From sequence record MT682710.1: a stretch of DNA of 64,000 nucleotides; one strand, given 5' to 3'. The translations under genes were made by a program, and so were the position numbers. Source of the DNA: Escherichia phage vB_EcoM_FT. Position 1 is the stretch's first letter, and every line of letters starts with the position of its first letter. Below the pieces are notes generated by a model, which saw nothing but the letters and a program-made list of their open reading frames with translations, was not told the origin of the DNA and did no database searches. Positions 21,277 to 22,907 of the stretch are shown here, piece by piece.

Positions 21277-22056
21277 TTAATTAAAAATATATACTTCATC
21301 AGTTCCATTCTTTTCTTTGGAATGATATATGTTAAAGACGTATTTTTTATTAAGATGCTTAACATTATATTTTTTAGACCATTCTTTAAGAAGAGTGTTT
21401 TCCTTTCCGTGATGCTCTAAAACATTCGACAGCCCAAATTTTATTCCTCTGTCATTTAAAGAATCTAAAAGATTTAAAAGGTCTTTTTCTTCTTCTTCTG
21501 ACCAAAATTTATTATAATCAGCAACTGTTATGAGATACGGAGGATCTACATATACAAAATCGCCGTCTAGAATTTTGACATCTTTAAAATGCAATGAACT
21601 AAAGATTATTTTATCACAATTTTGCTTAAAGTGATTAAAGCGTTTTTCACTATTTTTGTTTATAGTTCTTTTTCCAAACGGAGTAGTAAAATTTCCTTTA
21701 TCGTTTATACGAATCATATTACTAAATCCATGAAAATGAAGAACATAAAGTAAAAGAGGATCTCTAGTTTTATTATAATCTTCACGTAATTTCAAAAACT
21801 CTTCTTTTGATGTTTTTGATAGTTTGTATTGCTTTATTACTTTTAAAACGTCATCCCATGATACATTAATAAGACGCTTATACATTTCAATAATTGGTTC
21901 TTGAATATCATTAGCCAATACAGGACCATTGACGTTCAAAGACACTGATAAACCTCCACAAAATAAATCCACGAATCTGTCATATTTTGGAAAGTGAGGC
22001 TTAAGTTCAGGTAATAATGACTGTTTATTACCTGTATACGCGATAGCTCCTAGCAT
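21277..22056 (-). CDS. dam: DNA adenine methyltransferase Dam (GATC N6-A)
   Basis: 259-aa ORF; DPPY catalytic motif; recognised as T-even Dam. Confidence 0.9.
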
Positions 22057-22616
22057 TATATTCTCTCATTTATTGCAGCAAAAAACGAATTATATAATTC
22101 TTCATCATATGTATTTGATAGTAATACTAACACGTTTTGTGATTTAGCATATTCATTAAACCTTGCTTGGATAGTTGGATTATCAGTAAATGATTCTCTT
22201 TTTGTCCATTTATTACGTGGATAATATCCGCATGGCAAAAAATCTAATATCATCAATGACACGGGGTTTTCAGTTTTTGTGTATTCTTTTAATTTCTCTT
22301 TATCTTCTAAATATATTCCAACCGAATCAATAGCTGTACCTCCACCAACTTGATGTTTAATTTCAATTATATGCTTTTTACCGTTGCGAGAAATAACAAT
22401 ATCAAATCTTCTAGTACGCTTCTTAGTTATAAAATTAGAGCAAAACAAATTATTTGATTTTTCAGTATCATCGGTTAAAACCATTTTTTCTTGATAACTA
22501 ACTGAACAATCAGTGAAATATTCTTTTACTTTATTAAGTATGAAATTTTCAACTACGGCAGATATTTTATATGAATCTCCGTTTAAAGCCATTTCATGCA
22601 CAATTTTATTAATCAT
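22056..22616 (-). CDS. hypothetical PD-(D/E)xK nuclease-like protein, translationally coupled to dam
   Basis: 186-aa ORF; stop overlaps dam ATG by 1 nt; own promoter and GAGG RBS; RFDIVI...IIEIK resembles D...ExK. Confidence 0.55.
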
Positions 22617-22641
22617 TATATCATCCTCAGCAATTTATTTT

Positions 22642-22671
22642 ATAATACCATAACAAGCTGAGAAAGTAAAC
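22642..22671 (-). promoter_or_regulatory. early promoter driving the 186-aa ORF and dam
   Basis: GTTTAC-N18-TATTAT on minus strand followed by GAGG RBS. Confidence 0.55.
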
Positions 22672-22706
22672 AAATTTGTGATAAATATTAATTTAAAGGA
22701 GGACAT

Positions 22707-22907
22707 ATGGTACAAAAATTAATGGCACTTGTTAATGCCATAAAAGGTAATAAAAAACGTATAGCTTTTACTATTTCTGCTATGGTAGGAATTTTACTCT
22801 GGAACTTTATTTTATCACCAATTGCAATTGCGCATGGTGTTAATATTCCAGTAGTTACTCTTGATACATTCGTAGATCTAGCATTTGCTTTAGTTGGGTT
22901 AATTTAA
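22707..22907 (+). CDS. small hydrophobic membrane protein (66 aa), plus strand
   Basis: AAGGAGG 4 nt before ATG; exactly fills the gap between gene 61 and the 186-aa ORF; two hydrophobic segments. Confidence 0.45.
   Translation: MVQKLMALVNAIKGNKKRIAFTISAMVGILLWNFILSPIAIAHGVNIPVVTLDTFVDLAFALVGLI

Follow-up and report, generated by a model that had tools for sequence, protein, structure and literature searches.

A predicted restriction-endonuclease-like gene paired with dam in T2-type phages

Introduction

What the Dam methylase does for T-even phages has, to our knowledge, never been convincingly explained, and the enzyme has been studied mainly in T4. The question is raised anew by the interval between dam and the primase gene 61 in Escherichia phage vB_EcoM_FT (sequence record MT682710.1), of which a stretch of 64,000 nucleotides (hereafter, the window) was analysed. 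Here, a 186-aa open reading frame (ORF) on the minus strand runs into dam, its TAA stop codon (22058..22056) and the dam ATG (22056..22054) having one base in common within the sequence TAATG. Is this ORF a chance neighbour of the methylase gene, or its functional partner? As described below, homologues of the ORF accompany Dam-family methylases across T4-like phages, and the protein is predicted to have the fold of a restriction endonuclease. On balance, we give an even chance to the reading that the ORF encodes an active, EcoRI/MunI-like nuclease of the type II kind with a PD-(D/E)xK core, which together with Dam would form an old, translationally coupled restriction-modification (RM)-like module.

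Results

The ORF lies directly upstream of a Dam-family methylase wherever its context can be read

The window is a Tequatrovirus (T2/T4-type) segment, 99.2% identical to phages slur03 and BYEP02 over positions 21000-24000, with genes in the order of the T4 early region: 61.2, 61.1 and primase 61, followed by dam and then gene 56. The Dam protein encoded in the window is 100% identical to that of T2 and 97.7% identical to that of T4. An earlier note on this DNA, made from its sequence, had described the ORF, its TAATG overlap with dam and a GAGG ribosome-binding site, all of which are present in the sequence, and had proposed a functional link between the two genes.

This linkage is the strongest result of our analysis. 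The surroundings of a homologue of the ORF can be read in eight lineages (T2, Klebsiella phage KPV15 and six from metagenomes); in all of them the homologue is found directly upstream of a gene for a D12/Dam-family methylase, the two genes abutting or overlapping with a spacing of -13 to +35 nt. The pair is kept in three genomic neighbourhoods. In Tequatrovirus, and in two lineages with a primase of only 61% identity, it lies between gene 56 and primase 61; the Jiaodavirus KPV15 has it near rIIB, flanked by denB and ndd; and on the metagenomic contig SRR34434917_11601 (141-3844), which encodes the most distant of the nuclease homologues (P0013, 227 aa), it comes directly 5' of rIIA. Relative to the window proteins, the identity of the predicted nuclease (38-63%) tracks that of Dam (54-76%) and is comparable to that of the primase (61%). 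Since these identities co-vary, the two genes appear to have long been inherited together under purifying selection.

A different arrangement was noted in Klebsiella phage KP179, which has, at the slot occupied by the nuclease gene in KPV15, a gene whose 210-aa product gives a weak match of the Hjc/PD-(D/E)xK kind (E 7e-4, motif HKVDIVASKNGETLVIDVK). This gene overlaps that of a second D12-class methylase (278 aa), which is followed by Dam (locus 292-924, 908-1744 and 1801-2592). Judged by its sequence, this looks like another cassette in which a nuclease gene precedes a methylase gene at the same locus.

The 186-aa protein is predicted to have a restriction-endonuclease-like fold with an intact catalytic motif

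Sequence searches with the 186-aa protein against Pfam yielded sub-threshold matches only (DpnII, E 0.0045; BanI, E 0.009), the NCBIfam search returned nothing above noise, and the family profile had no match among PDB sequences even at E 10. The PHROGs family to which the protein belongs has no assigned function, and the gene product is called a 'hypothetical protein' in every phage record listed. Divergent T4-like phages nevertheless conserve the ORF with identities of 29-63%, and an AlphaFold (AF2) model based on seven homologues (pLDDT 80.7, pTM 0.80) has the secondary structure alpha(E23)-beta-beta(D72)-beta(E85xK87)-alpha-beta, which is that of the canonical PD-(D/E)xK core. In this model E23 is positioned in the first long helix (residues 15-33), D72 in the second core strand (67-77), and E85 and K87 in the third (80-88). 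All four residues are invariant in an alignment of nine family members reaching down to 29% identity, as are H88, Q89, G93-TAIDS98 and D125.

When the model was used to search for similar structures with Foldseek, every match was a PD-(D/E)xK nuclease. The closest structural match was R.MunI (PDB 1d02), an EcoRI-like type IIP restriction endonuclease with only 13% sequence identity to the ORF product; many other PD-(D/E)xK nucleases ranked after it, among them BstEII, BsoBI, PfoI, PspGI, Bse634I, NgoMIV, AgeI, BsaWI, Cfr10I, SgrAI and EcoRI. These enzymes are of the EcoRI-like class, whose members leave 5' overhangs, and MunI itself recognises CAATTG and pairs with a different methylase. The earlier note had claimed a nuclease of PD-(D/E)xK type with D72, E85 and K87 as its motif; the model and the structure search bear out the fold, and the motif is intact. 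Taken as modelled, the fold is that of a PD-(D/E)xK restriction-endonuclease-like protein whose catalytic motif is complete, from which we infer nuclease activity.

The family is tiny. Among 5.8 billion clustered proteins there were 10 matches, and an exhaustive profile search of 1.84 billion representative proteins gave 11, of which none of the convincing ones was bacterial or had a context outside T4-like phages; nor did this profile search find any bacterial RM system using the same nuclease family. A scan of IMG/VR returned only 2 loci. Because the family is so small and is confined to T4-like phages, it would represent a new sequence family of restriction endonucleases. In the literature, we found no description of the ORF, its locus tags, its PHROG numbers or a T-even restriction enzyme. 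The GenBank entry for T2 dam from 1988 (M22342) reaches 640 bp upstream of the gene and, to judge from position, should span the ORF, but annotates dam alone.

T4 has lost the nuclease gene, and other phages have lost it independently

The gap between dam and gene 61 measures 309 bp in T4 as compared to 847 bp in the window. The earlier note had taken the ORF for an inserted module. T4, however, retains the last ~80 nt of the nuclease ORF, and the segment that it lacks is flanked in the window by two copies of an 8-bp direct repeat, TTTGTGAT. T4 reads ...ACACGTTTTGCGATAAATATT... at this point, with the left copy of the repeat fused to the right copy; the 539 bp gone from between them take in the promoter-like box together with about 160 codons from the start of the ORF. 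Since T4 keeps the 3' remnant of the ORF and bears a deletion between direct repeats, it is T4 that lost the gene, and an insertion in the window is ruled out. This deletion probably explains why the nuclease gene was overlooked.

Across the phage collection, the full-length ORF was found in 154 records, and the whole stretch from dam through the ORF to the primase gene was likewise found in 154, the two sets being matched by count and not record by record. Dam at >=90% identity is present in 181 records, and the total of Tequatrovirus records matching the region is ~515. Of the Tequatrovirus records ~65% have neither gene, as is the case for T6 and for RB14, RB32 and RB51 among others; the nuclease gene is present in ~30%, and is intact in ~85% of the dam-carrying ones, for the most part with identities of >=99%. 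The ORF has also been inactivated independently in G4500 (by a frameshift) and in KarlGJung (Bas37; by an internal deletion), with dam left intact in both. We found no instance in which the nuclease occurs without dam, either by count (154 versus 154 records) or among the 8 lineages with context. A nuclease that is never alone, a methylase that is sometimes orphaned, and recurrent loss of the nuclease first: this is the pattern expected of a restriction-modification pair.

Patchiness of this kind, with the ORF present in ~30% of Tequatrovirus records, could also be produced by a free-standing homing endonuclease with its target in or beside dam, spreading as SegF does beside gene 56. The ORF sits between conserved genes, free-standing homing endonucleases are plentiful in this group of phages, with T4 segF two genes away, and the ORF has a low GC content (27.6% versus 34.2% for the window). 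T4 SegF, encoded between 56 and soc, is likewise the product of a small nuclease gene that lies among conserved early genes and is patchy among T-evens. However, SegF is annotated as GIY-YIG, whereas the phage ORF is of a different fold family, and the ORF has diverged in step with the neighbouring dam over distances of genus level, without ever being found apart from it. The unit of presence and absence is the nuclease gene and dam jointly (T6 has neither), and the losses of the nuclease alone show ordinary decay, by deletion with a remnant, by frameshift or by internal deletion. Its divergence together with Dam, at about the rate of the primase, points to long vertical inheritance under purifying selection; no homing-endonuclease family was matched in Pfam or PHROGs, and in structure the protein matches type II restriction enzymes best. 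Given this balance of evidence, we consider homing unlikely.

Repeated loss of the nuclease without loss of dam, together with the full viability of T4 without it, is also compatible with the ORF being a functionless relic of a captured RM system, kept since its 3' end and promoter drive dam. Such a relic would not be expected to remain full-length with its catalytic residues invariant across lineages whose primases are 61% identical, nor to be intact in the great majority of dam-carrying Tequatrovirus genomes at the identities given above, and we regard this explanation as quite improbable.

A third possibility takes its precedent from E. coli, where dcm and vsr overlap, a small PD-(D/E)xK-like nuclease gene thus being joined to a methylase gene: the ORF might encode a repair or recombination nuclease which, like Vsr with Dcm or MutH with Dam, nicks at GATC or at mismatches, so as to guide repair or to initiate recombination-dependent replication of the phage DNA. 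The gene is dispensable, though, having been lost in T4 and being absent along with dam from so many Tequatrovirus records, and N6-methyladenine (6mA) poses no deamination-repair problem of the Vsr type. The protein does not specifically resemble MutH or Vsr in structure or in sequence, and its structural matches favour the restriction enzymes, making a repair nickase very improbable in our view.

The 66-aa ORF goes with the end of the primase gene

The remainder of the interval holds a 66-aa hydrophobic ORF on the plus strand, whose start is preceded by AAGGAGG with a 4-nt spacer. It had been singled out as the sole convincing plus-strand gene in the window, and we could confirm this: the only other plus-strand ORF of >=50 aa between the minus-strand ORFs is a poor, TTG-started one of 52 aa at 62005. 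In the peptide, residues ~19-41 form a clear hydrophobic, transmembrane-like segment, and residues 45-66 may form another. By tblastn it was matched in 692 phage records, ~190 of them more distant at 44-56% identity; in each record listed, the matching stretch overlaps the gene annotated as primase. The ORF is present in T2, in T6 and in T4 (2 aa differ; T4 locus 3239-3439; unannotated in NC_000866), and in metagenomic lineages it is called at ~32% identity on the opposite strand, overlapping the primase stop codon. No 66-aa ORF lies beside the nuclease-dam pair of KPV15. An ATAAATA box that resembles the T4 late-promoter motif (TATAAATA) is found upstream of the ORF in the window, T4 and T6.

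A three-component system, in which the membrane peptide would act with the nuclease and Dam as the earlier note had suggested, is rejected on this distribution. Because T4 and T6 have the 66-aa ORF without the nuclease, and none lies beside the KPV15 pair, this ORF goes with the 3' end of the primase gene, where it is always found. By its sequence, it is a putative small membrane-protein gene, conserved independently of the nuclease-dam unit.

DpnII-type enzymes are the nearest group by sequence hints and methylase partner

Of the 9 members of the nuclease family, 4 have DpnII (PF04556) as their highest-scoring Pfam family, with a best E of 8.3e-5, and the best E among them for the PADLOC REase_II model is 5.3e-6. 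For a closer comparison, an R.DpnII sequence was used purely as bait; it retrieved P0018 (99% identity, Pfam PF04556) and a protein named DpnII of S. pneumoniae, and these retrieved database proteins were then used. Narrow and broad DpnII-family alignments were built for hhalign. The register of the resulting alignments is constant, with E23, D72, E85 and the Gly-rich loop of the ORF falling on E152, D201, E214 and GGSK of DpnII, and DpnII residues 149-288 have the same order of secondary-structure elements as ORF residues 15-185. Like the phage pair, the DpnII/LlaDCHI/MboI systems have a GATC methylase of the D12/Dam family as partner, and nearly all of the DpnII-family genes that we fetched from plasmids adjoin Dam-family methylases. 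By these sequence hints and by its methylase partner, the phage protein appears closest to this group, and it may work like a DpnII-type enzyme.

The differences are nevertheless substantial. The phage protein has 186 aa versus ~280 aa for DpnII, aligns only to DpnII ~124-239, and has no counterpart of the ~125-150-residue N-terminal region of DpnII. Its motifs read E-x-K (E-I-K) and GGGTA, where DpnII has E-x-N and GGSK, and the DpnII model shares only generic fold neighbours with that of the ORF. No member of the DpnII family was reached in the profile search of 1.84 billion proteins. In the phage pair the nuclease gene precedes and overlaps that of the methylase, and there is no second (DpnA-type) methylase, unlike in the DpnII system; in the DpnII-family examples, the order is mostly methylase then restriction enzyme. 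The phage pair is carried by a virulent phage with hydroxymethylcytosine (hmC) DNA, whereas DpnII systems are carried by a bacterium or plasmid.

A viral system of this type has been described in chlorovirus PBCV-1, in which the early-expressed GATC N6-methyladenine methylase M.CviAI (A581R) and a cognate nuclease (A579L) make up the CviAI RM system (PMC7248222). On our comparison this is the closest biological precedent, the likeness being one of system type. PBCV-1 is a lytic virus of a eukaryotic alga, while the host of the E. coli phage is already Dam-methylated. In chloroviruses, such enzymes act in the degradation of host DNA.

Layout of the interval between dam and primase 61

The positions of the features discussed here are collected in Table 1. 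The earlier note had assigned the ORF a promoter of the form GTTTAC...TATTAT. A site is indeed present (TTTACT-17-TATTAT, with TG ahead), and it falls within the segment deleted in T4, but it is no commoner than would be expected by chance: we found 8 consensus matches of this kind versus 7.0 +/- 2.4 in shuffled sequence. Because such matches are not enriched over shuffles, the box alone is weak evidence for a promoter. The hairpin 3' of primase 61 (1 found versus 0.3 expected in shuffles) falls inside the coding sequence of the 66-aa ORF. By its position, it would part the gene 61 transcript from the nuclease-dam pair, which fits with the pair forming its own transcription unit.

Table 1. Features of the dam-primase 61 interval, in window coordinates
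Feature	Position	Strand	Description
dam	21277..22056	-	D12-class GATC N6-adenine DNA methyltransferase; Pfam PF02086, E 6.5e-51
Predicted nuclease gene	22056..22616	-	186-aa ORF, PD-(D/E)xK restriction-endonuclease-like; PHROG 8706
Left 8-bp direct repeat, TTTGTGAT	22136..22143		Flanks segment absent from T4
GAGG Shine-Dalgarno	22625..22628	-	8 nt 5' of nuclease ATG; read from sequence
Promoter-like site	22642..22670	-	TTTACT-17-TATTAT, TG ahead; 5' of nuclease-dam unit
Right 8-bp direct repeat, TTTGTGAT	22675..22682		Flanks segment absent from T4
66-aa hydrophobic ORF	22707..22907	+	PHROG 2024; convergent with primase gene, with a 4-nt overlap at the end of the latter
Terminator-like hairpin and T-run	22722..22741	-	3' of primase 61

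The nuclease gene and dam have GC contents of 27.6% and 28.7%, versus 34.1% for the primase gene, 36.7% for gene 56 and 34.2% for the window. Downstream of dam, the gene 56 (dCTPase) ORF (20698-21231, minus strand) has a mechanically assigned TTG start and a length of 177 aa; the product annotated in related records has 172 aa (519 nt) and presumably starts at an internal ATG (MAHFNE...). Between soc and gene 56 (20298-20701, minus strand) there are two small ORFs, of 69 and 65 aa, where T4 has segF, and since these replace segF the window is of the T2/T6 type at that locus.

Discussion

How might a restriction-endonuclease-like protein coupled to Dam act in an infected cell? If the pair is an RM-like module, the nuclease would be its restriction half and Dam the protecting methylase. 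As the partner Dam methylates GATC, the most likely target of the nuclease would be unmethylated GATC, that is, GATC-containing DNA without Dam methylation. Enterobacterial hosts are Dam+, and T-even DNA contains glucosyl-hmC. The phage's own DNA would be shielded by Dam in addition to glucosyl-hmC and, since the hosts are Dam+, foreign DNA would be a likelier target than the host chromosome; the substrates would probably be under-methylated DNA entering or arising in the infected cell, such as that of co-infecting, dam-less T6-type phages or of fast-replicating elements.

We also looked at GATC itself, which is the most depleted of the sixteen 4-bp palindromes in the window (73 observed versus 209 expected; observed/expected ratio, O/E, 0.35). 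It also ranks lowest in dam-less T6 (1-50000), with an O/E of 0.33; the next lowest palindrome is TCGA at 0.58. This depletion fits with a long-standing selection on GATC in T-even phages.

Several points weigh against a functional RM-like module. The hints of similarity to DpnII do not establish membership of that family, because the Pfam score of the window protein lies below threshold (16.8 bits versus a gathering threshold of 23, E 0.0045), the hhalign probabilities are low (30%, E 5.5e-4, with the narrow alignment; 20%, E 1.1e-3, with the broad one), the N-terminal region is missing and the motif is E-x-K instead of E-x-N. The enzyme's activity, specificity and sensitivity to methylation are read wholly from its modelled fold and its context. 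With Dam+ hosts and glucosyl-hmC in the phage, it is not obvious that a GATC enzyme sensitive to methylation would find a substrate in either host DNA or the phage's own, and competitor DNA as the target is speculative. It is also uncommon among bacterial type II systems for the nuclease gene to come before the methylase gene and to be translationally coupled to it. Finally, the depletion of GATC does not discriminate between models, because dam+ and dam- phages show it to the same degree, and it has other published explanations, involving host Dam and MutH.

The linkage to Dam and early co-expression would fit equally well with a methylation-dependent nuclease of the DpnI kind, for which Dam would mark GATC in cytosine-containing DNA of the host or of foreign origin; the nuclease would then cut the methylated sites while glucosyl-hmC spared the phage. 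Host DNA, being Dam-methylated, would offer such an enzyme an abundant substrate. Yet Pfam and the model indicate a single nuclease domain in the 186 aa, with no methyl-reading domain detected, and none of our searches returned a similarity of DpnI type. Under this scheme, survivors with dam alone, such as T4, are not expected to be especially favoured, yet loss of the nuclease with retention of dam recurs. We think a DpnI-like enzyme improbable.

If instead the nuclease restricts unmethylated GATC with Dam as its protecting partner, the pair could serve as a weapon of phage against phage, where R+M+ phages of the T2 type would cut the GATC sites of co-infecting, dam-less T6-type phages and R-M+ phages of the T4 type would be immune free-riders. 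This extension is one that we hold to be rather unlikely. Were it true, it would amount to a three-morph polymorphism at one locus, provide a reason for the Dam of T-even phages and contribute to the depletion of GATC.

In sum, we rate the pair as restriction-modification-like from its sequence, with a candidate new sequence family of nucleases and an unexpected carrier. T4, in which T-even Dam has mostly been studied, is the exception at this locus: in T2 and in 85% of dam-carrying Tequatrovirus records Dam is the downstream half of a pair, so that the T-even Dam is recast as one half of a nuclease-methylase cassette. Should the nuclease prove to be a restriction enzyme directed at GATC, virulent phages of the classical kind, whose DNA is hypermodified, would carry a restriction-modification system of their own. 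This would bear on the annotation of >150 phage genomes that list the gene as encoding a 'hypothetical protein', on competition between phages and on marker exclusion in T-even crosses.

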